A DNA stretch of 64,000 bases, taken from positions 5,656-69,655 of the IMG/VR virus record IMGVR_UViG_3300020577_001702. One strand, given 5' to 3'. How positions within the stretch are numbered: position 1 is the first letter of the stretch; every line of letters begins with the position of its first letter. Made by a program: the position numbers and the translations under genes. The stretch is from a virus. Its lineage: Duplodnaviria > Caudoviricetes. Shown here piece by piece: positions 2,304 to 55,976 of the stretch. The notes under the pieces are model-generated. The model saw only the letters and a program-made list of their open reading frames with translations, was not told where the DNA came from and did no database searches.

Positions 2304-2540
2304 TTACTCCCCCTTAATCAGGCCCTTGCCGAAGCTGAACAGGCCAGTCGCCACAGCGGCGACGGTAACGACAGCAGCCTTGACGCCGGTCTCGACGGTG
2401 GTGTGCACGGTCTTGCCCGCGTTGTAGGCTGCCTGATCCAGGGAGCTGAGCGTCGGCTGGGTGGCTTGGTTGGCCTGGGTGTTGGTCTTGGTGGCGCTCT
2501 TATGGTTGCGCCGATTCATCGTGGTCGTTGTCATGATCAT
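2304..2540 (-). CDS. Hypothetical early protein (MIMTTTT..., 78 aa)
   Basis: SD AAGGAG before ATG 2540; start trimmed from the track ORF. Confidence 0.6.
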   Translation of the reverse strand: MIMTTTTMNRRNHKSATKTNTQANQATQPTLSSLDQAAYNAGKTVHTTVETGVKAAVVTVAAVATGLFSFGKGLIKGE

Positions 2541-2898: not shown

Positions 2899-3381
2899 TC
2901 AGAACCTCACTTCGTCAGTTATGGAAGGGTCGACCGTGGTCGGATCGACCTTATACCCAGTGCCGCATCGCTCTAGTTTCGCACCCACCTGATCCAGGTA
3001 GCGTTGCACAGCTCCGACGAGCATGTGGGAGGCGTAGCGGAAACCATGCTTGCTGTCCACATACGTGACCTCGATGCTGTCCGGGAAGAACTTGTTCATG
3101 GCGGAACTGTTACTGGACCATGGTCCTTTTATGGTGCGTGTGGTGCCGTCCTGCATATGCAGCTTGTACGTGCTACCCCCAAAGCCGGTCTCGTTGTGGG
3201 GGGTGTGATAGAAGAAGCTCACGAAGCCCGTACGGGGGCAGAACGCCCAGTAGAGCGTAGCGTCGCCGATGGAGGCGCACGAATACCGATACTCCTCAAT
3301 CTTCGGCGCATCTTCGCCGGCATGTTCAGCTTCCAGCACGACGTGGTGGTAGCCGTTGTAGTAGTCGAACGTAACTTTCAT
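2899..3381 (-). CDS. Hypothetical protein (MKVTFDYYNG..., 160 aa)
   Basis: ATG 3381 overlaps the TGA of the upstream mini-gene (ATGA). Confidence 0.6.
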   Translation of the reverse strand: MKVTFDYYNGYHHVVLEAEHAGEDAPKIEEYRYSCASIGDATLYWAFCPRTGFVSFFYHTPHNETGFGGSTYKLHMQDGTTRTIKGPWSSNSSAMNKFFPDSIEVTYVDSKHGFRYASHMLVGAVQRYLDQVGAKLERCGTGYKVDPTTVDPSITDEVRF

Positions 3382-3569: not shown

Positions 3570-4790
3570 TTAGGAAGCAGCGCGACGACTATTGATCGTG
3601 CGCGGCATCAAACTCTTAGCAGCGGGCTTGATGACTTCCTTGGTCTGCTCGGGCACCGTGGGTGCCTTGGCGTTGCTGGCCTTCTTGGGCGGATGCATCA
3701 TGGCTTCCAGCTCAGCTTCGAGCTGGGCCTGACGCTCCAACGAGCGCTTGAGATTCATGCGAGCTTGAAACAGGACCATGTTCGCCTCGGTCTCGGTGGC
3801 AAGCGCATCCGCTTCAGCAGCGGCTGCCTTCGCCTCCATGGCCTTGATGTTGGCCTGTTGCGCACGCACCAGCGCTGACTGGGCACGCCACTCGGGGTGG
3901 TTCGTCAACCACATGGGAGTGCCCGTGATGCACAACGTATCCCAGCGCTTCGTCAGCGTCTCATACCACCAGTGGCAGCTACGCTGCGCAGCGCGGTAAA
4001 GACCACCGGCCTTGATAAAGGCTTGCCGCTGCGCTTCAGTGGGCTGCTCGCCCAGCGCGTTATAAACTTGCTGAGCCTTGTTGTACTCGGCCTCGGCCAT
4101 GCCGAAAGCCTCGAACTTGCTCAGCAAGAAATCCCAGGAGCGCTCGGACGAGCGCACCAAGGTCTCAGGCTGAAAGTACTCAGCCGCCTCATCCTTGGCA
4201 GTCTGGGCGTCGACATGCTTGAAGCTGCCAATCAGCTCACTGGCACGCTCCAGGCGGATGTGCCAAGGCGTGCCCGCCTCAACACTAGCGCGCTGCTTGA
4301 CGAGCCACTCATTGAACGGCTCGACGCTGCCCTTGAAACCTTGGGCGTCGTGACGGTTGAGCCTGAAGCGACCGCCATCGGTGGTCTTCTTACCGGCTTC
4401 CTCACGCTCTTCACGAGCACCCTTCATCAGGGACTCGCAGCGACGTTCGAGAATACTGTGCGCCCACATAGCCTGAGTGAGCAGATCACGACGCTCGATC
4501 TCCATCTCGCTCTCGGCCATGAGCCGCTTGTTCTCGTCGTCATTCAGGCTACCCTCACGGGCACGATCCTGAAGCGGCGTGTCAGCGGCAGGCATGAGCA
4601 TCACGATGTCGCGACGCACGTTGTACAGCTCGGCACGGCACAGCCAGAAGTCAGCCTCATGGCTGGAGCCGAACTCGAACGGAGTCTTGACGACAGACGC
4701 CAAAGTGTCAGAGACACCCAGAGCAAAGATGCCCTTGATGATCGTCGAGACTTGGTTCATAGTGAACGTGCCATTGGTAGTGGCTTTCAT
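3570..4790 (-). CDS. Hypothetical helical early protein (406 aa), downstream of the hammerhead leader
   Basis: SD TAGGAG before ATG 4790; long ORF with phage codon bias. Confidence 0.75.
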   Translation of the reverse strand: MKATTNGTFTMNQVSTIIKGIFALGVSDTLASVVKTPFEFGSSHEADFWLCRAELYNVRRDIVMLMPAADTPLQDRAREGSLNDDENKRLMAESEMEIERRDLLTQAMWAHSILERRCESLMKGAREEREEAGKKTTDGGRFRLNRHDAQGFKGSVEPFNEWLVKQRASVEAGTPWHIRLERASELIGSFKHVDAQTAKDEAAEYFQPETLVRSSERSWDFLLSKFEAFGMAEAEYNKAQQVYNALGEQPTEAQRQAFIKAGGLYRAAQRSCHWWYETLTKRWDTLCITGTPMWLTNHPEWRAQSALVRAQQANIKAMEAKAAAAEADALATETEANMVLFQARMNLKRSLERQAQLEAELEAMMHPPKKASNAKAPTVPEQTKEVIKPAAKSLMPRTINSRRAAS

Positions 4791-4911
4791 TTGGTTTCTC
4801 CTAAAGACAGGAACTACAAGTGAAATAGGGGCAAGCGGTGGTGACACACCGTCTTGCCCCTTCCTATTCGAGCGTCAGATTTTGGTGGTTCGCTCAGACC
4901 ACAGATGAGTT

Positions 4912-4963
4912 GGCCTCATCAGTACACGCTTGACGTGTAGAGCACCTCACGGTGCTTTCGGCC
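4912..4963 (-). ncRNA. Hammerhead ribozyme, type II
   Basis: Minus strand reads GGCC-GAAA-GCACC(GTGA)GGTGC-TC-TACACG(TCAAG)CGTGTA-CTGATGA-GGCC: complete core, three paired stems, CUC triplet, predicted cut between 4940 and 4939. Confidence 0.85.
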
Positions 4964-5062
4964 TCTTGGAGTGTAAGCGCTGACGAATGATCGCCAGCTT
5001 GTATACCCGGTTTACATGGATTCGTAGCATGTTCGGTCCTCCACTTTCGTATGACAAGTAAA

Positions 5063-5322
5063 TTGGAACAAAATCGGAACATTGCCTCATTTTTAGGCAA
5101 CTTCAAACGGTCGTTTGAATTACCCATGTGGATTAGTAGGGTATTGGCACCGATTTATGGGATGTATACTCGGAACATTGGAACACCTAAGTCATTGATT
5201 TATTGGGTTTGTTCCGATTGTTCCGAAATTTTAAAGGTTTCAGTGAGAGAAGAGGGTGTTTGGGCTCATGCATGTATCGCCAAATCCTGACTGAACTTTT
5301 AAAAATCGGAACATTGGAACAC
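5063..5322. other. GGAACA iteron cluster with IHF-consensus site (origin-like element A)
   Basis: TCGGAACATTGGAACAC at 5170 and 5306, inverted TGTTCCGATTGTTCCGA at 5210, half sites at 5063/5074, WATCAANNNNTTR match at 5188-5200 (- strand), AT-rich. Confidence 0.55.
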
Positions 5323-5605
5323 TCGATTTTTTGCCCTCATGTCATAAATACGATGGCATTTCCACTGTCCACGCCAAAAATGCTCACTACTGTATGTTCA
5401 CACAGTATGTGCCTCATTTTTAGGCAGTCAGTACACTAACTGCCTAAAAATGAGGCAGCCTGTCATAAAGGCTGCCTCATGCTAGGTGGATACTAGAGCC
5501 CTAACGGCTCGTGGAAGACGGGAATAGGCATGGTGCCCAACTCAACGACTTCGAGTTCTTCGAGTATCATGGTCATCTCCTGTTTAACTGCCTAATTTTT
5601 AGGCA
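5083..5605. promoter_or_regulatory. Four 17-bp imperfect palindromes TGCCT-N7-AGGCA (operator-like)
   Basis: TGCCTCATTTTTAGGCA at 5083 and 5410, inverted copy at 5441, TGCCTAATTTTTAGGCA at 5589. Confidence 0.6.
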
Positions 5606-5663
5606 ACACGTGTGCTCTCTCTCGCCTTTGCTGTGTCGCCTCGTATGAGGCGACCAGCCCTCG

Positions 5664-5870
5664 CTACCAGTATCGTGCGAGGTGTACCGCAAGCTGCTGC
5701 GTCGATTCGAAATGCCCAGTGCGATAACACGCGACAGCATCAGCGGCACGCGCCTTCAAATAAGCGCGAGCCAGTGTGAGATCGCCGGCAAGCTCCACCG
5801 ATGAGGTGAAGCCGTCGAGGCACTTCGCTTCGCAGACACTCTGGTACTCATTCCATGCCATTGTGGTCAT
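5664..5870 (-). CDS. Hypothetical early protein (68 aa) flanked by 18-bp inverted repeats
   Basis: SD AAGGAG before ATG 5870. Confidence 0.6.
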   Translation of the reverse strand: MTTMAWNEYQSVCEAKCLDGFTSSVELAGDLTLARAYLKARAADAVACYRTGHFESTQQLAVHLARYW

Positions 5871-5967
5871 GGTGGTTTCTCCTTCGCTGGTTGAACACAG
5901 CAAAGGCGAGAGGACACTACACAGCCCACAGGCTGTGTGCTGCCCTCTCAGGCAGCATCTCAACCGC

Positions 5968-6198
5968 TTAGCGGTTGAGATATTTGGCGAAGGCGCTGCT
6001 CGCCTCTTGGGTAGCGCGCTCCTTGTGCAGTGCACGGAGCGGCGTCCAGGCGTTGCTCGCCTCCTTACTGATGGCCTTGCTCTCTTCGACGAGCGCTGCG
6101 GCCTTATCAGTAGCCCAAGCGACTGCGCGCATGGACAAGCTGATCTCTTCAGTATTGTTGACTTGGGTGTTGGTGTTGGTAGTGGTTGTCATGATCAT
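5968..6198 (-). CDS. Hypothetical early protein (76 aa), first leftward gene
   Basis: SD AGGAG; its stop lies in the loop of an 11-bp hairpin. Confidence 0.6.
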   Translation of the reverse strand: MIMTTTTNTNTQVNNTEEISLSMRAVAWATDKAAALVEESKAISKEASNAWTPLRALHKERATQEASSAFAKYLNR

Positions 6199-6525
6199 CT
6201 CCTGAGTAAACGAACTACGAAAAGGTCGGAATCCGAAACCGAATCCGAACCGGGTACCCCTATCTGAGGGATAGGGGATGGGATGGCGTCCTAGTAGATC
6301 GACTCAAAAATCAGAAATCACTCAGAAGTACACTTTCGAAACCACCTAGTAGATCGGCTCGAAAATCAGAATTTGTGCAGGAGATGTATACAAATCTAAA
6401 AATTTTCGTTTAGAAAATATGACAAAGTACTTGTGTACTTTCGTCCAGCAGTCATCCCGATCCGAAGTACCCACCCCGGTAGCCACAACCAGGATCAGCC
6501 CCTACAAATTCAAAATTTTTCGGGA

Positions 6526-6977: not shown

Positions 6978-8718
6978 GGCCAAGGAGCCTCGGCTCTGCT
7001 ACAACTGCGGTCAGACCCTCTCACCGGCGATGTTCGGGGCGCATGAGCACGTCTGCAACGTCTGTATGCTCAACCACCAGGGAAATCCGCCTGATTTCCT
7101 GCCTTTCGACCCTGAAAACCTGAGTAAGGAAGAGGCTGTAGACGTACTTTCGACCATCTCCGAGGTGGAACTGCTCGAAGTTGCCGAGCGAATCCTGATC
7201 CAGCGCTCGTTGTTGGCCTTCGTCCGGCGTTTCAAGCCGGATTACATGGCTGGCTGGGTCCACGAGGACATTTGCCGGCGTCTGGAGCGCTTCGTGAAGG
7301 CCGTGGAGGCGAAACAGAGGCCCAGGCTACTGCTCTGCATGCCTCCACGGCACGGGAAGTCCACCCTGACCAGTAATTTCCTGCCTGCGTGGATTCTTGG
7401 GCACCACCCGGAGTGGGAAATCATCGCCGCGAGCCACACTCAGTCCTTAGCTCTGAAGTTTTCTGGCTTCATCCGAGACCTTCTGAGAGACCCGGCGTAC
7501 CAGCAGGTGTTCCCGAACACGATCTTGAACCCGGACAGCCAGAGTAAGGAGGCGTGGGACACCACCAGCCGGGGTGGGTATCTGGCAGCCGGTGTCGGCA
7601 CGGGTATCACCGGGCGCGGCGCGCACGTCTTGATCGTGGACGACCCGGTGAAGGACATGGAGGCAGCGGACTCGGAGACGATCCGGGACAATACCTGGGA
7701 GTGGTACACATCCACGGCCTATACCCGGCTGGCTCCAGGCGGTGGTGTGCTGGGGATTCTGACCCTGTGGAACGAGGACGACTGGGGCGGGCGGATCATC
7801 GAGGTCAGTGAGACCCGCAGCGGCGACAAGTTCGAGATCGTCCGCTACCCGGCGATCAACGAGGGCTTCGCGGAGTACCTGCACTCGGACGAGCGGACGA
7901 TCCTGCGGGTGCTGCCCGACGAGACCCCGCCCGAGGACGCCACGCTGCTGCGCCCGGTAGGTACCGCGCTGCACCCGGATCGGTACGACCTGGAGGCGCT
8001 GCTCAGCATCAAGAACAACTACTTCGCCCGTGGCAACCAGCGGGTGTGGCACGCGCTGTACCAGCAGAACCCGACGCCGGAGGACGGCTTGTTCTTCACC
8101 AAGGACAAGTTCCGCTACTACTCCACGCCGCCGCAGAAGCGGTTCTGCACGGTCTACCAAGCGTGGGACTTCGCGATCACGACCGGGCAGGAGAGCGACT
8201 ACACCGTGGGGGTGACGATCCTGCAAGACCCGAACGATGCGCTCTACGTCGTGGACATCCGCCGCTTCCGCTCCGGCGACAGCATCGAGATCGTCGACGT
8301 GATCCTGGACTTCTACGTGGAGTGGGGCGCGGACATCATCGGTGTGGAAGATGGCCAGATTTGGAAGACGATGCAGGCCCAGTTCGAGAAGCGCTGCCAC
8401 GAGCGGAAGCTGTACCCCAGCTTCGAAGCGCTGAAGCCGCTGACGGACAAGAAGGTGCGGGCACACCCACTGCGCGGCCGGATGCAGCTCGGCAAGGTCT
8501 ACTTCCCCGACGACGCGCCGTGGAAGCACGAGATGCAGCAGGAGCTGCTGAGCTTCCCAGGCGGGAAGCACGACGACCAGGTGGATGCCCTGGCCTGGGC
8601 CGTGCGCCTGACCCTGACGCGCGCAGCACCCACATTACCCGAGCCGAAGAAGCTGCCTAGCTGGAAGGACAAGCTGAAGCTGATCGGCTCGACGGACGTA
8701 ACCCACATGGCGGCTTGA
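6949..8718 (+). CDS. terL: Terminase large subunit with N-terminal CxxC...CxxC extension
   Basis: Walker A MPPRHGKS, Walker B LIVDDPVKD, nuclease AWDFA...SDYT and HDDQVDALAW. Confidence 0.95.
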   Translation: MAKPSASRSKAKEPRLCYNCGQTLSPAMFGAHEHVCNVCMLNHQGNPPDFLPFDPENLSKEEAVDVLSTISEVELLEVAERILIQRSLLAFVRRFKPDYMAGWVHEDICRRLERFVKAVEAKQRPRLLLCMPPRHGKSTLTSNFLPAWILGHHPEWEIIAASHTQSLALKFSGFIRDLLRDPAYQQVFPNTILNPDSQSKEAWDTTSRGGYLAAGVGTGITGRGAHVLIVDDPVKDMEAADSETIRDNTWEWYTSTAYTRLAPGGGVLGILTLWNEDDWGGRIIEVSETRSGDKFEIVRYPAINEGFAEYLHSDERTILRVLPDETPPEDATLLRPVGTALHPDRYDLEALLSIKNNYFARGNQRVWHALYQQNPTPEDGLFFTKDKFRYYSTPPQKRFCTVYQAWDFAITTGQESDYTVGVTILQDPNDALYVVDIRRFRSGDSIEIVDVILDFYVEWGADIIGVEDGQIWKTMQAQFEKRCHERKLYPSFEALKPLTDKKVRAHPLRGRMQLGKVYFPDDAPWKHEMQQELLSFPGGKHDDQVDALAWAVRLTLTRAAPTLPEPKKLPSWKDKLKLIGSTDVTHMAA

Positions 8719-36355: not shown

Positions 36356-39300
36356 ATGGGAGCTTTCGACCGTGCTGCACCCGTTCTAGTCCAGAACAAC
36401 CCGCTTGACTCGTTTGGTCAACCGGGTGAACTGGTCAAGGGTCTACGCCGTGGTATCACCGGCACTACCGCTGGCCTGCAAGCGGCTGCTGGTCAGGTGG
36501 TGCAGCCGATGTCGCCCGAGCTGGGCACCGCCATCATCCAGGACGCCATCGCCGCCGAGCATGCGTCACAACAGCGCAACGCCCCTCGCGTCGGCACGTG
36601 GAAGGACGCGCAACTCAGTGGTGCGAACTTCGCAGACTATCTGCTCGCCAAGGGCAGCGAGGCTGTACCGGCGCTGCCGGTCGCCATGGTGGGTGGTGTC
36701 GCCGGCAAGCTGGCGGGCCTCGGCGGCGCTGTAGGCGGCGCGGCTGCGTTCCAGCCAGTGATGATGGGTAGCGAGGCTATGCGCCTCCAGAACGATCCCG
36801 CAGCCGCTGATCTGACGCCTGGGCAGAAGCTCCTGCACGCGGGTGGCTTCGGTGCTGCGGAAGCTGCGGCGATGGGTGCGGTACCGGGCATGATGGGTTC
36901 GCGCCTGCTGTCCCGCGCGCCTGTGACCTCGTTCGGTGGCGCAGCCTCGAAGGCGCTGCTCGACACTGGCGTGAACAGTGTCGGCATGGGTGCGGGCATG
37001 GCTGCTGGCGACGTGATCGGTCAGCTCGGTCAGCGCACGTACAACCCGAACGCGGTGTACGACCCGGAGGCGACGAAGGAAGCCTTCGTCGGTGGTGTGG
37101 CTGCTGGCCTGCCGCTGGCTGGACCGCACGCCGCCCTGGCTCGTGGTCTGGACGTGGCGAAGGCTGGCGCTGTGGACGCGCCGCTGGAAGCTACCCGCTC
37201 GGCGCTGACACGCGTGCGCGAGCGCCTGCCTGACGCGGTGCGCCCCTTCGCTGACGCGATCATCGGCGGTGGCGAGGTGACGACGGACGCTGTGAACGCG
37301 CTGGCTCCCTACGCCGACATCCTCGGTATCGGCGCGAAGACCGTGTTCAACCGGGTCAGCGAGGCGGCGAAGAACGCCGGCCAGAACATCGCCGACGCCC
37401 ACAACGCGAGCCTGTTGACGCCCTCCGATGTGGTGGCTGGCGCGACGGATGTCGGTGCTGCGCTGGTGGGTGGTATCGAAGGCACGGCCCCGGACATGAT
37501 CAAGGCACTGAAGGCCCAAGCAGCGGCTGACGGTGTAAAGCTGGACTTCTCCGCTGACAAGAGCGACGCCGAGAACCTGAATGCCTTGTCGGACTACATG
37601 AAGAAGTATCACCCCAGCGCTGCGAAGCCGCTGGCTCGTCCTGGTACTGGTTTCCAGCAGCAGATGGCCGGTATGGTGCGAAAGAGCCTGGGTAACGATC
37701 TGAGCCTCGATGAGACCGGCCAGCTCAAGAGCCTGCTCGACAAGGTGGACGCCGGTCAAGAGCTGTCGCCGGCTGAGTCGACCCAACTCTGGAGCGCCAC
37801 CAGCACGCTGTCTGGCAAGGTGGCGAACCGCGAGCGCTTCAGCAAGGACTTGGCCGAGCTGGCTGACTGGCAGGAGAAGACCGGCAAGACCGCGCCTACT
37901 GCGGAAGACACCGGCCTCAAGTTCAGCAAGCAGAAGGTGAAGGATCAAGCACGGGAGAGCGCAAGGGATGTGTTCGGCTCGGCACAGATGCGCGAGGCTC
38001 TGGCGGAGCTACAGGTCGCGCCGGAAGTCATCGACGGCGTGCTGGACCGGATTCAGGCCAAGGATATCAAGGAGCGCGGCGTCGAGCTTGTGATTCGCCG
38101 TGCAGTCACGTCGGCGTTGACGAAGCGCGGCATGAAGGACTTCGCCCGCCGGGGTGCTCCGGTGTACGACCTCATGACCACTGCGCTTCGCGAGAAGCTG
38201 GCTGAGAAGTTCCCCCGGAAGCAGAAGGAGAACGCGCCCGCTGAGTGGGAGCAATCCCCTGAGTTCGAGCGTGGCGTGGACAACATCGTCGGCGAGCTGA
38301 TCACTGCCTCGGATAAACCCGAGCTGAAGAACCCCGAAAACATGCTGGATGCCTCATACGGTATCGCGGACTTCATCAACAAGCTGTCGTCCGGCAAGGC
38401 GGATTATGCCCGCCGCGCCGATCAGTTCCGTTCGTTCCTGACCCGGAACTTCGGCGACAACGCGAGCTGGGCGGCTGACCGGATCATCAAGCTGGCCGAG
38501 ACCGAGTACGCCGGCCAGCCGGAGCGCGTCGAACGCCTGAAGGCCCTGCGCGAGTCCCAGGACACGCTGGATGCCGTGACTGCCGAGCTGAAGAAGACTG
38601 CCGGCTACGGCGGTGCGAAGATGGCCGACCACATGATCAGCGAGTACCGCAAGGCGCGGGCGGTGGACGAGCAGGCCAAGGACTTCAGCAAGTACTACAA
38701 CGGCGCGAAGCGCCTGCGCGAGGTGGCGGCTCAGCTTGAGGAGCACTCCATCAACGCGGTGAACCCGGAGCGTGCCCAATCTGCCCTGGAGAAGGCTGAC
38801 AAGCTGCGCACCCGCGCCGACGAGCTGGAGGCGCAGGCCGGCGAGGCGTCGAAGGGCGGCAGCGCCCTGGCCCAGCTTCGTGCTCGTTGGATCGGCTCGG
38901 AGCTGATCAAGGCGAAGAACGACGAGGGTCAGCGCGGTGACGTGTTCGACCGCGTGGCGAAGCTAGTCGAGAAGTACGAGCGGGCGAACAACGCGCGTAC
39001 CGACCGGGAGAAGGCGCAGCGTGAACAGCGCTCTGGCAGCATGGAGCTGGCAGACGACATGGACCTGGAGTCCTACATCCGCAAGATCACCCGCGACGAA
39101 GACGGGAACTCGAACGGAGTGGACAACGAGACCGGCCGGCAGGGCGAGGAGGGTGGTGCGAAGTGGTACGGCACTGACATCCTCCACACCGAGGCGCGCG
39201 GCAAGCTGACGAAGAACGGCCGGTCGGCCTCGGTGAACAAGACCGAGACTGGCGCGTTCCTGTCGTCGCACCCGAGCATGGTCTACGCCGACGAGCACGG

Positions 39301-42300
39301 GAACCCGCGCAGCCCGCTGGCGATGGCTCGTGATCTGCTCTACGAGAACGAGGTGGGTCATCGTGTGGCTACCGTCCGCACCAAGACCCCGGAGCAGTGG
39401 GTCAACGAGGTTGGTGGGAACCCGCACGAGATGTTGAAGCAGGCCATGGCGGATGTGGTGGCGCACGACAAGCGGATGCTGAAGGACTACGCCGGCAAGC
39501 TGGGTGCGAAAGAAGCCGAGGCGATGAAGAAGCGCATCGAGCTGTTCGAGTCCGGTGCGACTGGTGTGGAGTTCTTCAATAGCCCGTGGGCAAAGAAGAT
39601 GCGGATGCTGAAGGTCGAACAGAACGCTGGCGACACGATGGCGCTGGACGAGCAGGAGATCGTGTCGTCCTCAGTGCGGAACTTCAACACCCACGAGACT
39701 GGCGAATCCGCTGCGGCCTACGCTGCTCGGATGCAGCGCCAGGAAGGCTCATTCAAGACCACGGCTCCGTACGAGAAGGCCCTGTTCCCAGTCGAGCTGA
39801 TGGACAAGGGCAAGCCGATGCTGAACCCGGAAGGCAAGCCGGTGGTGATGCAGCTCGACTTCGCCAAGCTGGTGCAGCGCGTGCTGCGTGAGCACCAGAG
39901 CGGCGACACGGCTGGTGTCAGCCCCGAGAGCTTCATGGAGAAGCTGAAGAACACAGTGCATGAGGTAGTCGGTGCGCTGCTGGCGTCGGATAGCGTCAAC
40001 GCCGAAGCCTTCAAGAAGGCCATGCGGAAGACCAACGAGGGTGAGCTGCTGCCGCTCGATCTGGTTGCCTACCGCAGCAAGGGTGAAGGCGCTCGCTCGT
40101 TCACCTACGGGCAGGTGGCCGGCATCAAGGAGATCACGAAGGCCGGCGACGTGGTGCGGAAGAACATCGAGCTGGTCGAGACTCCTCGCAGCGGTAAGGA
40201 GCGTGCTGCCAAGGGCTCGAACGAGATGGTGACGAACGAGGCCGTGAAGGGTATCCCGTTCACCGACCGCAAGGCTGTGACCGACATCCCTGACCAGCGC
40301 ACTGTGGACTCCTACGTCACGCGCTCGACGCCGGCTGCGAAGTCCGCCTCTACCGCTCGGGCTGTCGCTGAGAAGGGTGGCGTCACCTACGACATCAACC
40401 TGAACCGGCTGCTGGTCGAGACGCTGCACGCCAACGAGATCGACGGCCAGAAGCACGTCCAGGAAGGCGACCTACCGACGAAGCTGGCGGCGAAGATGCT
40501 CCAAGAAGGGTTGGCGAACCTGGAGCACCTGGGCTACAAGATCGACCGCTCCAAGCTGGCGGACGTGGAGGTCTACCGCAAGCAGTATGGCGACAAGACC
40601 GAGCCGGTGTTGCAGAAGAAACTCAACGCCGAGGTGGGCGACGTGCCACGTGACATCGAGGGTGCGAAGGCCCAGGAGACCCGCGACCTGATCGAGTCGT
40701 ACCGTGGCAAGATCGAGAAGACCCTCGGTGATCTCGACCTCGCGAATGAACAACTCGGTAGCAAGCTGGGTGGACGTGACGAGCTGCTGGAGAAGCAGGA
40801 TGCCCTGCTGGAAGCGCAGGTGAAGGAAGCGCGGCAGATGCTGGCCGACATGAAGCGGCAAGGTTTTGTGGACCTGAGCGTTGGTGATCACCTTTCGCTG
40901 GACCGAGGTGTGCGCGTCAATGAGGGTCGGAAGACTGCGGACGAGGCCGGCGTCGGTGAGATGGAAGCGCTGCGGATCAAGGAGAACTTCAAGGAGTTCG
41001 GCGGCAAGCAGAACGCTCCGGTGTTCGATGTAGCTGAGGCGTACGGCTCGAAGCGGCAGGGCAGCACTGAGCCGCCCAAGCGCGACATCCCTGAGACCGT
41101 GGAGACGCTGAAGCAACGTGTCGAGGAAACTCGTGCTGCGATGGAGGAGGCGCTGAGGCAGATCGAAGCCGGCGTCGAGCCGAAGGTGCCTGCCACCGAC
41201 GACATCAACGCCGCCAAGAACCGCGCAGCCGAGGCTGAGCTGAAGGAAGCGCCGGTTGTGGCTGCGAAGACGAAGGTCGCCCGCGAGCAGAAGAGTGAGC
41301 ACGCCGAGCGCAAGGCCCAGGCGCGGCTGCTCAACGACGAGCGCAACGCCCGCAAGATCAATGCCGACCTGGACCGCCGCATGAGTGCGAACGAGTCCGA
41401 CGCGGTGACGGACCTTGTGATGGAGCTGGATGGCGCTGAGAAGCCCATGGCTCCGCGAGTGCTGGCTGACAAGCTGGCAGGCATGACGCCGGAGCAGCGC
41501 TCCACGCTGCGCGCCACACTGGAGAACTCCGAGTCCGTCGCGGCGAAGGCAGCTACGAAAATGATCGACGCGAAGTACCCGGTGGGTGCTCGCGGCGAAG
41601 ATACCCCGTTCAGCAAGCAGACTCCGCAAGGTGTACGCGAGGCTGCTGACGCGATGCAGGCTGAGCACGGGCGGCTGGTCGGCGCTATGAAGGCGGTGGT
41701 TGAGACGGTCGAAGGGCTGAAGCTCGGCGACAAGGAGATCACCGGCCAGTACTCGAAGGCGACCAAGGAAGCTGTGGCGAAGATCGTGATGAACGCTGCG
41801 GCCGGCATGGAAGGCGTGCACCACGAGACGTGGCACCACATCGAGGCGCTGCTCGACGGCATGGGTGAGCACGGCAAGCACATCAAGGACATCGTGTACA
41901 AGGCGATGGAAGCCGAGCATGTGAAGCAGTGGCTGGCCGAGAAATTTGCCGGCGACGAGGGTGCGCTCAGCCAGTTGGAGTCTCCCAGCGAGCGGGCTGC
42001 GTTCGCGTTCCAGCGCTTCATGGCCGGTGACAAGCTGCCGCTGGCTCCGAAGGCGCGCAGCGTGTGGCAGAAGCTCGCCGACTGGGTACGAAACCTCGTC
42101 GGGTTGACCAGCTCCGAGGACAAGGCCCGGAACTTCTTCGAGTACATCAAGGAAGAGGGCTTCGCTCGGGACGTAGAGAACCCCGAGGCGCTGATTCGCG
42201 GGATCAAAGAGACCCGCATGGACAATATGCTCAAGGGTGCGAAGAAGACACTGAAGCCGTTCGGCGAGGTGCTGGACAAGCTGATCGAGCATGGTGACAA

Positions 42301-44017
42301 CCGCGTGCGCAAGCACGGGGTGAAGTCGTACGAAGCGTTGATGAACAAGTACGTCGGCGAGACCGGCAAGGGCGGCTACCAGTCTGCGAAGCACCAGCAG
42401 TACTACAAGTGGGGCAACCAGTTCGCCCAGTTCTTCGATAAGCACCAGGGCGCGGACTACACCCACCCTGGCTGGGACGCCATGCAGACCAGCTTCGAGA
42501 ACTACATGCGCAGCGCCGGTGTGTCGGACGCTCAGATCAAGAGCCTGCGCAACAACCTGGACGGCTACAACAAGATCGAGGCGGACAGCCGCTTCGAGGA
42601 GCTGGTAGCGGACATCGCGAACCACGGTGGGTTGCCCAAGACTCGCGGCATCTCGGCGCGGGATGTGGCGACGCAGATTGTGGACCGTGGCTACTTCTAC
42701 GACCCGGACTTCAAACTCTTCGACGGCGCACCGAGAGTCGCTGCGAAGTGGATGGCGAAGAACCCGGTGGACAAAGCCATCGCCTACGCCACGAAGGGCA
42801 CGGAACTGGCCGAACGTACACGAGCCTTCGGCGAGGTCACGAAGGAGACCCCGTACGGCAAGGAGTTCCACGAGCTGCTGAAGAAAGGCGACACCGAGGC
42901 CACCAAGGAAGCCCAGCAGGACATGCAGGAGTTCATCAAGGGGTGGGAGCACACCTACGAGAACTCCATGTCGCCTGGGCTGAAGAAGGTTATCGGCTCG
43001 ATCCAGCTCTTCGAGAACGCTCGCCTGTTGCCGCTGGCCGTGTTCTCCCAGGCGCTGGAGCCGATGCAGCTCGCCCTGCGCCGGAACAGCTTCGAGGGTA
43101 TCGGCGGTTCGCTGTGGCGCGGGATCAAGAACCTGCCGCGTGCCTTCGACACCCTGGACGCGAAGTACACTCCCGACTATTGGGAGAAGTTCGCCATGAA
43201 CCTCGGTACCGCCCAGCACCGCATCCTGGACGGCGCTGTCGGCCGCATGGTCAACGGTATGCGCCTGCCTGGGTGGGTCGGGGAGATCAACGACAAGTTC
43301 TTCCAGTACAACTTCATGAACACCTGGAATCGCTCGATGCACATCGAGGCGACCAAGCACGCCGTGGAGTTCCTGAAGGAGCACGCTCGGGGCGTCAACA
43401 AGGTACACTCCGACCGTTTCCTGAATGAGCTGCACATTGGGCGCGACGAGGTGTTGAAGAACATCATCCGCGAGGGTGATATCGAGTCGCTGAAACTGAC
43501 CCCGAACATCGAGCGGGCGATCTGCCAGTGGGTGAACGAGGCCATGGCTCACGCTGACGCCGGTAGCAACCCGTTCTGGATGAACGACCCTCGGTTCGCA
43601 CTGATCTCCCAGATGAAGCGGTTCACGTTCTCCCATAGCAAGTACATGTTGGATCGTGGCATCCGCGAGTGGCAGCTCGGCAACACGTGGGTGGCAGCGC
43701 CTGCTGTCCTGGCGATGCCGTGGATGCTGGCGTCAGACGCTGTGCGGGATACCCTGACCGGCAAGGACATGGCCTACCGGGCGAACTGGGGTGTCTCGGA
43801 CTACGCCATGCACGCCTACGAGCGTGCCGGTCACACCGGGATCAGCCAGTTCGGTGCGGACGCTTGGCGGGACGTGAAGGTGGGCGGCAGTGGCCTGGGT
43901 TCGCTCCTGGGGCCGGCTGCGCAGAGCTTCGGCGACACCCTCCGGGGTGCCAACACAGGGCACATGATCGACGCCCTGATCGGTAACAGCCCGTCCGGAC
44001 GCCTCCTCGGTGTCTAG
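36356..44017 (+). CDS. Giant internal virion/ejection protein (2553 aa) with HExxH metallopeptidase-like motif
   Basis: Gly/Ala hydrophobic N-terminus; HETWH encoded at 41822-41836; last gene of the structural block. Confidence 0.85.
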   Translation: MGAFDRAAPVLVQNNPLDSFGQPGELVKGLRRGITGTTAGLQAAAGQVVQPMSPELGTAIIQDAIAAEHASQQRNAPRVGTWKDAQLSGANFADYLLAKGSEAVPALPVAMVGGVAGKLAGLGGAVGGAAAFQPVMMGSEAMRLQNDPAAADLTPGQKLLHAGGFGAAEAAAMGAVPGMMGSRLLSRAPVTSFGGAASKALLDTGVNSVGMGAGMAAGDVIGQLGQRTYNPNAVYDPEATKEAFVGGVAAGLPLAGPHAALARGLDVAKAGAVDAPLEATRSALTRVRERLPDAVRPFADAIIGGGEVTTDAVNALAPYADILGIGAKTVFNRVSEAAKNAGQNIADAHNASLLTPSDVVAGATDVGAALVGGIEGTAPDMIKALKAQAAADGVKLDFSADKSDAENLNALSDYMKKYHPSAAKPLARPGTGFQQQMAGMVRKSLGNDLSLDETGQLKSLLDKVDAGQELSPAESTQLWSATSTLSGKVANRERFSKDLAELADWQEKTGKTAPTAEDTGLKFSKQKVKDQARESARDVFGSAQMREALAELQVAPEVIDGVLDRIQAKDIKERGVELVIRRAVTSALTKRGMKDFARRGAPVYDLMTTALREKLAEKFPRKQKENAPAEWEQSPEFERGVDNIVGELITASDKPELKNPENMLDASYGIADFINKLSSGKADYARRADQFRSFLTRNFGDNASWAADRIIKLAETEYAGQPERVERLKALRESQDTLDAVTAELKKTAGYGGAKMADHMISEYRKARAVDEQAKDFSKYYNGAKRLREVAAQLEEHSINAVNPERAQSALEKADKLRTRADELEAQAGEASKGGSALAQLRARWIGSELIKAKNDEGQRGDVFDRVAKLVEKYERANNARTDREKAQREQRSGSMELADDMDLESYIRKITRDEDGNSNGVDNETGRQGEEGGAKWYGTDILHTEARGKLTKNGRSASVNKTETGAFLSSHPSMVYADEHGNPRSPLAMARDLLYENEVGHRVATVRTKTPEQWVNEVGGNPHEMLKQAMADVVAHDKRMLKDYAGKLGAKEAEAMKKRIELFESGATGVEFFNSPWAKKMRMLKVEQNAGDTMALDEQEIVSSSVRNFNTHETGESAAAYAARMQRQEGSFKTTAPYEKALFPVELMDKGKPMLNPEGKPVVMQLDFAKLVQRVLREHQSGDTAGVSPESFMEKLKNTVHEVVGALLASDSVNAEAFKKAMRKTNEGELLPLDLVAYRSKGEGARSFTYGQVAGIKEITKAGDVVRKNIELVETPRSGKERAAKGSNEMVTNEAVKGIPFTDRKAVTDIPDQRTVDSYVTRSTPAAKSASTARAVAEKGGVTYDINLNRLLVETLHANEIDGQKHVQEGDLPTKLAAKMLQEGLANLEHLGYKIDRSKLADVEVYRKQYGDKTEPVLQKKLNAEVGDVPRDIEGAKAQETRDLIESYRGKIEKTLGDLDLANEQLGSKLGGRDELLEKQDALLEAQVKEARQMLADMKRQGFVDLSVGDHLSLDRGVRVNEGRKTADEAGVGEMEALRIKENFKEFGGKQNAPVFDVAEAYGSKRQGSTEPPKRDIPETVETLKQRVEETRAAMEEALRQIEAGVEPKVPATDDINAAKNRAAEAELKEAPVVAAKTKVAREQKSEHAERKAQARLLNDERNARKINADLDRRMSANESDAVTDLVMELDGAEKPMAPRVLADKLAGMTPEQRSTLRATLENSESVAAKAATKMIDAKYPVGARGEDTPFSKQTPQGVREAADAMQAEHGRLVGAMKAVVETVEGLKLGDKEITGQYSKATKEAVAKIVMNAAAGMEGVHHETWHHIEALLDGMGEHGKHIKDIVYKAMEAEHVKQWLAEKFAGDEGALSQLESPSERAAFAFQRFMAGDKLPLAPKARSVWQKLADWVRNLVGLTSSEDKARNFFEYIKEEGFARDVENPEALIRGIKETRMDNMLKGAKKTLKPFGEVLDKLIEHGDNRVRKHGVKSYEALMNKYVGETGKGGYQSAKHQQYYKWGNQFAQFFDKHQGADYTHPGWDAMQTSFENYMRSAGVSDAQIKSLRNNLDGYNKIEADSRFEELVADIANHGGLPKTRGISARDVATQIVDRGYFYDPDFKLFDGAPRVAAKWMAKNPVDKAIAYATKGTELAERTRAFGEVTKETPYGKEFHELLKKGDTEATKEAQQDMQEFIKGWEHTYENSMSPGLKKVIGSIQLFENARLLPLAVFSQALEPMQLALRRNSFEGIGGSLWRGIKNLPRAFDTLDAKYTPDYWEKFAMNLGTAQHRILDGAVGRMVNGMRLPGWVGEINDKFFQYNFMNTWNRSMHIEATKHAVEFLKEHARGVNKVHSDRFLNELHIGRDEVLKNIIREGDIESLKLTPNIERAICQWVNEAMAHADAGSNPFWMNDPRFALISQMKRFTFSHSKYMLDRGIREWQLGNTWVAAPAVLAMPWMLASDAVRDTLTGKDMAYRANWGVSDYAMHAYERAGHTGISQFGADAWRDVKVGGSGLGSLLGPAAQSFGDTLRGANTGHMIDALIGNSPSGRLLGV

Positions 44018-44144: not shown

Positions 44145-44345
44145 GTATACTCGGAACATTGGAACACCTTACCCTTTGATTCTTTTGGTTTGTTCCGATT
44201 GTTCCGAAATTTAGAGATATTCACGCAGGAAAGAAGAAGGAGACCCGACCCATGTATGTGCTCTATGTGGATGAAGCGCCAAAGATCGGAACGTTTTTGA
44301 CCTGTTCTGTTTGAAATCAATGGGTTGCGTGTTCCGATGTTCCAA
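44145..44345. other. Second GGAACA iteron cluster with IHF-consensus site (origin-like element B)
   Basis: 44145-44212 matches 5164-5231 with identical arms and spacing; AATCAATGGGTTG at 44315-44327; GTGTTCCGATGTTCCAA at 44329. Confidence 0.55.
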
Positions 44346-55745: not shown

Positions 55746-55976
55746 TTACGCCGTAACGCTGGCGAGCGACGCTTCCAGGCCGGCGAGGGCCTTGGCGGCA
55801 GCGGCGGCAGCCTTGTCGTTGGTCTTGACGAAGGTGTTGAAGGTCTTCTCAGCGGCCTTGCGGTCGTTGGAGATGGTCTTCACTTCATCCTTCGCAGCCT
55901 TGATCTTGGCCTTCAGATCGACGACGACGGCCTTCTTTTCGGCCTTGGACAGAACAACACTCTTGGCACGTGCCAT
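55746..55976 (-). CDS. Small Lys/Ala-rich coiled-coil protein (76 aa)
   Basis: SD AAGGAG; strong codon bias. Confidence 0.7.
   Translation of the reverse strand: MARAKSVVLSKAEKKAVVVDLKAKIKAAKDEVKTISNDRKAAEKTFNTFVKTNDKAAAAAAKALAGLEASLASVTA

Follow-up and report, generated by a model that had tools for sequence, protein, structure and literature searches.

Genomic context of the element

The stretch of DNA analysed here (the window, 64,000 nucleotides) covers bases 5656-69655 of an IMG/VR phage genome that is complete at 69,655 bp and carries direct terminal repeats. From about position 6200 of the window down to position 1, all credible genes lie on the minus strand, in the same orientation as the ribozyme described below. 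Read along that strand, the order is two small genes, a short ORF, the intrinsic terminator of these preceding genes (5480-5446; by direct reading, an 11-bp stem and UUUUU), a low-GC regulatory stretch with repeats, a candidate 27-codon ORF (5030-4948), the ribozyme (4963-4912), a strong hairpin (4860-4828) that begins 52 nt past the ribozyme, and finally the SD and ATG of a 406-aa gene (4790-3570). A scan of 4500-6200 for sigma-70-like promoters found none; barring read-through, the promoter of a ribozyme-bearing transcript should lie between the terminator at 5480-5446 and about 5040.

The near-palindrome TGCCTAAAAATGAGGCA occurs in four copies (5083-5099, 5410-5426, 5441-5457 and 5589-5605), where 0.02 would be expected by chance. 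All four belong to the regulatory stretch that precedes the ribozyme, and the terminator at 5480-5446 includes one of them; the repeat is a likely operator or protein-binding site. Copies of a second motif, GTTCCAATGTTCCGA, which has a tandem GTTCCRAT unit, are found at 5170-5184, 5306-5320, 5074-5088 (with 3 mismatches), 44151-44165 and 44331-44345; they are confined to the genome's two low-GC intergenic regions and could be iterons or regulator sites. A piece of ~68 nt around GTTCCAATGTTCCGA also occurs elsewhere, since separate contigs with unrelated flanks, in the metagenome runs X6 and X8, cover 5164-5231. On the plus strand, an ORF of 2553 codons (36356-44017) closes the structural gene block.

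The 406-aa gene starts at ATG 4790 and is preceded by an SD (AGGAG, 4802-4798). Its product has no family match in Pfam or PHROG, and a word-based homologue search returned only the protein itself; an exhaustive search recovered a small family of 28 representatives of ~390-440 aa, which gives the protein 27 distant relatives of similar length, and the orthologues in the phage loci L140 and L142 are 35% identical. Used as sole query in locus searches, neither this protein nor the primase yielded anything useful. In the predicted fold, the SD pairs with a UUCCU that precedes it to form a small hairpin (4812-4798, minus strand), a structure that could limit initiation on the 406-aa gene.

The strong hairpin between the ribozyme and this SD (GGGGCAAG...CUUGCCCC, then UAUUU) is terminator-like, both by reading and in the predicted fold, and may stop many transcripts before they reach the 406-aa gene. 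Hairpins with U-runs also lie just upstream of the orthologues in L140 (~3135-3175, minus strand) and L208 (~2429-2465, plus strand). That three divergent phages share a terminator-like hairpin 25-45 nt ahead of the SD of this gene family points to expression by read-through or antitermination, or else to a 5' stabiliser that has been conserved.

On the other side of the ribozyme, the candidate 27-codon ORF has an SD (GGAGG, 5042-5038) separated by a 7-nt spacer from its ATG (5030); it overlaps the 5' third of the ribozyme and ends at a UGA (4950-4948) inside loop III. No homologues of this ORF were found. Two substitutions in a natural variant of the phage (X11), at 5024 and 5016, are synonymous in the 27-codon frame and non-synonymous in a 77-codon frame, which constitutes weak evidence. 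The corresponding 77-codon ORF (4894-5127), which encloses the ribozyme, was considered and rejected: it has no family match, and all five variant changes fall at codon position 1 or 2 of its frame.

A complete type II hammerhead on the minus strand

The original prediction placed a type II hammerhead ribozyme, with a complete core, three stems and loops capping stems I and III, on the minus strand at 4963-4912, and every part of this description was borne out by direct reading, a type II descriptor, alignment to the Rfam model RF02276, a covariance model of the family (R1) and the predicted fold. Read 5' to 3', the 52-nt element opens with GGCC (4963-4960), the 3' strand of stem II (positions 11.4-11.1), which pairs with 4915-4912. 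The core residues G12, A13 and A14 follow (GAA, 4959-4957; invariant in the family alignment), and then the stem III hairpin (4956-4941), in which the A15.1-U16.1 pair and five further base pairs (GCACC with GGUGC) carry the GNRA loop GUGA (4950-4947). C17 (4940) precedes the predicted cut; it is followed by a 17-nt stem-loop I (4939-4923) of 6 bp (UACACG with CGUGUA) and the loop UCAAG, by the core residues C3, U4, G5, A6, U7, G8 and A9 (CUGAUGA, 4922-4916), and by the 5' strand of stem II (GGCC, 4915-4912, positions 10.1-10.4).

All hammerhead core bases are canonical in this arrangement, namely 4922-4916, 4959-4957, the A15.1-U16.1 pair at 4956/4941 and an H17 (not G) that is C4940. The pairs adjoining the core are all free of mispairs: G4915-C4960 (10.1-11.1), U4939-A4923 (1.1-2.1) and A4956-U4941 (15.1-16.1). 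Stem II has 4 bp, stem III has 6 bp including A15.1-U16.1, and stem I has 6 bp, or 7 if U4933 pairs with G4929. Stems I and III are loop-capped and stem II is open to the flanks, as in the type II topology, and the strand order is 11.x, GAA, stem III hairpin, C17, stem I hairpin, CUGAUGA, 10.x. Directly 5' of stem II lies an unpaired A (4964). The 3' flank (4911-4904) begins with an unpaired A4911 and includes CUCAUC (4909-4904), which is complementary to the core segment GAUGAG (4920-4915).

Hammerhead numbering puts the predicted cut 3' of C17, between 4940 and 4939, exactly where the prediction had it, and the distance from there to ATG 4790 of the 406-aa gene, given as "about 150 nt", is 149 nt. 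Both reading and the gene map further confirm that the element lies in the leader of this gene and is sense to the flanking minus-strand genes. Cleavage is predicted to leave a 2',3'-cyclic phosphate on the upstream piece and a 5'-OH on U4939. The minimum-energy fold of the 52-mer alone is exactly the three-way junction (-21.8 kcal/mol, z -3.1), and the 3' product (4939-4785), which starts flush with the stem I hairpin, folds far better than its shuffles (z -4.7).

The descriptor has a single match in the window and a single match in the whole 69.7-kb genome. Among 1000 dinucleotide shuffles of the window, 4 contained a match when stem lengths were relaxed and none did at the lengths observed, from which we extrapolate a chance rate of roughly 1e-5 per window for a perfect descriptor match. 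Because a few perfect chance motifs are then expected across ~250,000 windows, independent evidence is needed.

A family of short-loop phage hammerheads

We scanned IMG/VR DNA with a pattern in which only stem II and the core were fixed and stems I and III were left free. Matches fall in at least 119 phage loci, and in at least 93 of these the descriptor recognizes complete hammerheads, giving at least 161 copies and at least 133 distinct sequences. A single locus can hold up to 10 copies (10 in L004 and 7 in L112, among the matches listed). In extra copies within loci, stem II covaries (GGUC/GACC, AGCC/GGCU, GGAC/GUCC and others); the high percentage of pairing in the family is partly by construction, since the descriptor that selects the sequences demands pairing.

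Of the 133 copies among the matches listed, 130 have a stem II of exactly 4 bp and 114 a stem-loop I of 17 nt. Position -1, immediately 5' of stem II and left free by the pattern, is an unpaired A in 132 of the 133, and position +1, immediately 3' of stem II, is A in 98. In the 114 copies with a 17-nt stem-loop I, loop positions 1, 3 and 5 are occupied by U (113 copies), A (85) and G (94), and a G-C pair closes the loop (G in 103, C in 101). The candidate has the family traits that the pattern leaves free: A4964, A4911, a 4-bp stem II, U4933, a U-N-A-N-G loop and a closing G-C pair. Its surroundings are atypical. In ~82 of the 133 copies the ribozyme starts -1 to +4 nt from an upstream stop codon, and the following start codon lies 10-40 nt downstream of the ribozyme; at the candidate, by contrast, the stop codon of the sole upstream ORF is inside loop III, and 121 nt separate the ribozyme from the gene that follows.

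Standard searches pass over the site. At the gathering score, Rfam gave no match at the ribozyme site in a search over the window, an Rfam E-value scan of 301 nt around the ribozyme returned nothing (the filters discard the match), and a whole-genome search with RF02276 did not recover the site. In a 61-nt scan, RF02276 (Hammerhead_II) aligned over its full length (model positions 1-66) with 24.6 bits (E 0.0012), which is below the curated gathering threshold of 37 bits and leaves the candidate outside Rfam membership. Because RF02276 at its gathering score passes only 4 of ~35 descriptor-positive family copies (from 12 phage loci, including L004 and L112), a score below the cut-off is typical of the family, and the sub-threshold score is a weakness of the Rfam model.

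The covariance model R1 was built from 62 family members with the candidate left out. It scores the candidate at 63.5 bits (E 2.3e-17), much of it by construction because the search pattern had been modelled on stem II and the core of the candidate itself; by rough hand arithmetic, ~20-27 of the 63.5 bits come from features that the pattern does not fix. The second-best R1 match in the window, on the minus strand at 55902-55950, reaches 16.5 bits and consists of AAGGCCGAA, 25 nt and AGGCCAAG; it has the stem II halves and the flanking As without the catalytic core, and is probably a chance match, possibly a remnant.

By its sequence, 4963-4912 is a genuine type II hammerhead, an additional example of a known ribozyme type that is very common in uncultivated phages, and the known picture of the hammerhead class is unchanged by it. 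The commonest phage build that we see, with an open 4-bp stem II, a 5-nt loop I and no pseudoknot, is systematically under-annotated: standard annotation overlooks it because it falls mostly below the Rfam threshold, which is a practical blind spot.

Conservation in a distant relative and in natural variants

A hammerhead holds the same map position in a distant relative, L066 (on a contig shared with L150), in which TerL is 57% and the primase 39% identical to those of the window phage. The 143-aa ORF just upstream of TerL, which is probably the small terminase, has a homologue there that is 33% identical. A further locus, L149, carries a hammerhead and a 350-aa gene identical to those of L066. 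The L066 hammerhead, also 52 nt, lies on the strand opposite to the terminase genes, between the terminase side and the primase, 2.6 kb before the primase (2.9 kb in the window phage) and 110 nt before the next gene, that for the 350-aa protein (121 nt before the 406-aa gene in the window). The 406-aa and 350-aa proteins show weak position-matched similarity (E 0.011), and their genes may be very distant positional orthologues.

The flanks of the two hammerheads are not alignable. In L066 all five inner pairs of stem III are changed yet paired, the loop of stem III is GCGA where the candidate has GUGA, and an A-U pair of stem I is replaced by G-C. The upstream ORF in L066 stops 5 nt before the hammerhead, not inside it, and the hairpin that follows the hammerhead has no U-run. 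Fifty nucleotides past the L066 hammerhead, on the plus strand at 6985-7005, there is a second CUGAUGAG, and a CAUCA before it can pair with it; the descriptor found no complete second hammerhead in this leader.

Among 80 terminase-related loci, a hammerhead of any type was found only in the L149/L150 lineage. No hammerhead was found in L140, L142 or L208, in which an orthologue of the 406-aa gene is present, and a search for other Rfam ribozymes at the equivalent place in L140 and L168 found none; the latter is the closest terminase relative, and its syntenic gene weakly resembles the 350-aa gene. Because three relatives with the orthologue lack the ribozyme, it is dispensable for the 406-aa gene, and because relatives with the orthologue have the hairpin and no hammerhead, it is not a fixed part of the expression of that gene. 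The relatives that keep the downstream gene and lack the ribozyme provide a natural presence/absence comparison. No near relative among cultured phages emerged from megablast and tblastn searches. Between the primase and its counterpart in the Pseudomonas phages KPP25/phiR18 the identity is 37%, and KPP25 has no family hammerhead; a blastn search of cultured phages with the 64-nt element gave chance matches only.

The phage occurs in river, wastewater and digester habitats. Near-identical phages are present in contigs from other metagenomes, and the only changes in their ribozymes are C17 to U and, in loop I, G4929 to U. The U at position 17, found in a wastewater variant (X8), is still an allowed H17, and could also be read as relaxed constraint; G4929 to U, in X11, produces the second commonest family state. 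Core bases are undamaged in every variant compared. Beyond the ribozyme, the apical part of the 4860-4828 hairpin has variant changes at 4841 and 4845. A contig of ~320 nt spans the cut site, and its sequence does not distinguish between an RNA and a DNA origin.

Candidate loop I contacts and the 3' flank

The original prediction also suggested that AAGC of loop I could pair with a GCUU in the 5' flank. The GCUU is there, at 4978-4975, but the family lends the pseudoknot no support. Complementarity of loop I to either flank shows no enrichment among the 133 family members listed, which leaves the AAGC/GCUU pairing unsupported in this family of 5-nt loops, and the syntenic homologue in L066 lacks the pairing. 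Nor was an outer helix formed by the two flanks enriched when tested on the family.

The invariant features of the family are the unpaired A before stem II and the U that opens loop I. In type I and type III hammerheads, the tertiary contact between loop I and loop II includes a conserved reverse Hoogsteen pair, and for the type II hammerhead no structure is available, according to the same source (PMC6155905). From the conservation of these two bases, we infer that A4964 is the likely tertiary partner of U4933 in loop I, and that the family would use a split-loop version of the classical reverse Hoogsteen contact between loops I and II.

The 3' flank has a property of its own. Complementarity to the core over at least 5 nt occurs in the 3' flank of 34 of the 133 family copies listed, compared with 4.2 in shuffles, and was never found in the 5' flank of these copies. 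In the candidate, a hairpin between the core GAUGAG and the flanking CUCAUC is present in the predicted fold of the 3' product. This masking flank is weakened by U4905C in the variants X9 and X11 and is absent in L066.

A proposed role in transcript processing, and alternatives

From the observed sequence, fold, family membership and conservation with compensatory changes, we infer transcription of the element, its cleavage, the tertiary contact and an effect on stability or translation. We consider it likely that an active ribozyme cuts the minus-strand transcript between 4940 and 4939 and so parts the leader and small ORF from the 406-aa message. In this model, minus-strand RNA running from the regulatory region (~5440-5040) towards the 406-aa gene would carry the ribozyme, and 4963-4912 would fold into the three-way junction once transcribed. 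Stems I and II would probably be held parallel by contact of U4933 in loop I with the unpaired A4964 and A4911 that flank stem II, a split form of the classical loop I-loop II contact and not a pseudoknot. The RNA would then cut itself after C4940. The upstream piece would comprise the leader and the 27-codon ORF, with the stem III hairpin and a 2',3'-cyclic phosphate at its 3' end; the piece downstream of the cut would begin with the flush stem I hairpin and a 5'-OH, and continue through a highly structured 149-nt leader into the 406-aa gene.

As a likely effect, the fate of the downstream message would no longer be tied to that of its 5' leader. That stability or translation might change as a result is suggested by general bacterial mRNA decay biology and by the processing of phage transcripts proposed as the role of such ribozymes (PMC3088659, PMC6765202); for type II hammerheads of prophages, cleavage has been reported both in vitro and in vivo and transcript processing has been proposed (PMC3088659).

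A real ribozyme might serve the surrounding RNA instead, by providing a hairpin-capped 3' end for the RNA of the leader and small ORF, or by generating an RNA of ~115 nt with a 5'-OH (4939-~4822). The strong hairpin and UAUUU 52 nt past the ribozyme and the marked structure of 4939-4785 (z -4.7) both speak for such a role, and the placement of ~82 of the 133 family ribozymes at an upstream stop codon would fit a 3'-end function for the upstream message. Further, the hairpin is kept in L140 and L208, which have no hammerhead, so the 406-aa gene does not need the ribozyme. We nevertheless hold a role of this kind to be unlikely: the U-run after the hairpin is weak (UAUUU), the hairpin that follows the L066 ribozyme has none, and the 24 nt between the hairpin and the SD are insufficient for a separate promoter, for which reason expression of the gene probably relies on read-through transcripts in which the ribozyme is included.

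Alternatively, cleavage might be gated, with the ribozyme kept unfolded either by translation of the 27-codon ORF through 4963-4948 or by CUCAUC-GAUGAG pairing, such that cutting would report on translation or on folding kinetics. The small ORF has a strong SD (GGAGG with its 7-nt spacer), a stop codon in loop III and two synonymous variant changes; family copies show an excess of core complementarity in the 3' flank (34 of 133, where 4.2 would be expected) and never show it in the 5' flank, and the masking hairpin is part of the fold predicted for the 3' product. Against this, the masking hairpin is not kept in L066 and is weakened by U4905C in X9 and X11, the small ORF has no homologues and its two synonymous changes are weak evidence, and the upstream ORF of L066 stops 5 nt short of the ribozyme; gating of either kind seems to us quite improbable. 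We give similarly little credence to a more specific version, in which ribosome traffic on the 27-codon ORF would gate folding of the hammerhead, and the abutment of family ribozymes on stop codons would reflect translation-coupled cutting and not compaction. If it were true, the separation of the 406-aa message from its leader would depend on ribosome traffic.

That the element is a chance motif or a decaying, inactive relic is very improbable: although it scores below the Rfam gathering threshold, is a single copy in its genome and is absent from most relatives, and although a few perfect matches are expected by chance over ~250,000 windows (at the extrapolated rate of ~1e-5 per window), it matches conserved family positions that the descriptor does not demand (A4964, U4933 and the 17-nt stem-loop I), its syntenic site is conserved with compensatory changes across ~40-57% protein identity, and no core base is damaged in the variants compared.

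Cleavage of the leader from the 406-aa message is thus the reading that we prefer. The biological role of the thousands of phage hammerheads is still called elusive (PMC6765202, PMC6155905), and the candidate is a cleanly defined, single-copy leader hammerhead whose map position is kept in a distant relative with compensatory changes.

Comparison with known systems

The candidate resembles RF02276 and the type II hammerheads described in bacteria and phages (PMC3088659) in its core, its permutation and its intergenic habitat in a phage. In the published type II consensus, loop I is ~10 nt long and pairs with the 3' tail in a pseudoknot of at least 4 bp, and stem II often has 2 bp (PMC3088659). 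By contrast, the candidate has a loop I of 5 nt and a stem II of 4 bp, and its pseudoknot is unsupported. With type I and III hammerheads it shares a loop I that opens with U and, next to a 4-bp stem II, an A (4964) in the place of the last base of loop II; unlike in those types, loop II is open and the partner bases sit on separate flanks, with conservation pointing to the contact.

Clustered hammerheads in prophages flank single genes, as in Agrobacterium (ardA), Clostridium scindens and Azorhizobium, and those on the sense strand between genes have been proposed to cut long transcripts into gene-length mRNAs (PMC3088659). Arrays like these are seen within the IMG/VR family (L004 and L112). 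The candidate, by contrast, is a single copy in a long leader that follows a regulatory region, and the tight gap from stop codon to ribosome-binding site that characterizes the clustered prophage arrangement is not found around it.

In the haloviruses HF1/HF2, a hammerhead variant lies 13 nt upstream of the start codon of a helicase gene, and a mapped 5' end falls at most 3 nt from the cut site (discussed in PMC3088659). Because the mapped end is so near the cut site, HF1/HF2 are the best precedent for a phage mRNA 5' end made by a ribozyme. Their ribozyme has a variant core, belongs to an archaeal virus and is close to the start codon, whereas the candidate has a canonical core and a gene 149 nt away with a hairpin between. 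What the two share is a ribozyme placed in the leader of a replication-side transcript's first sizeable gene.
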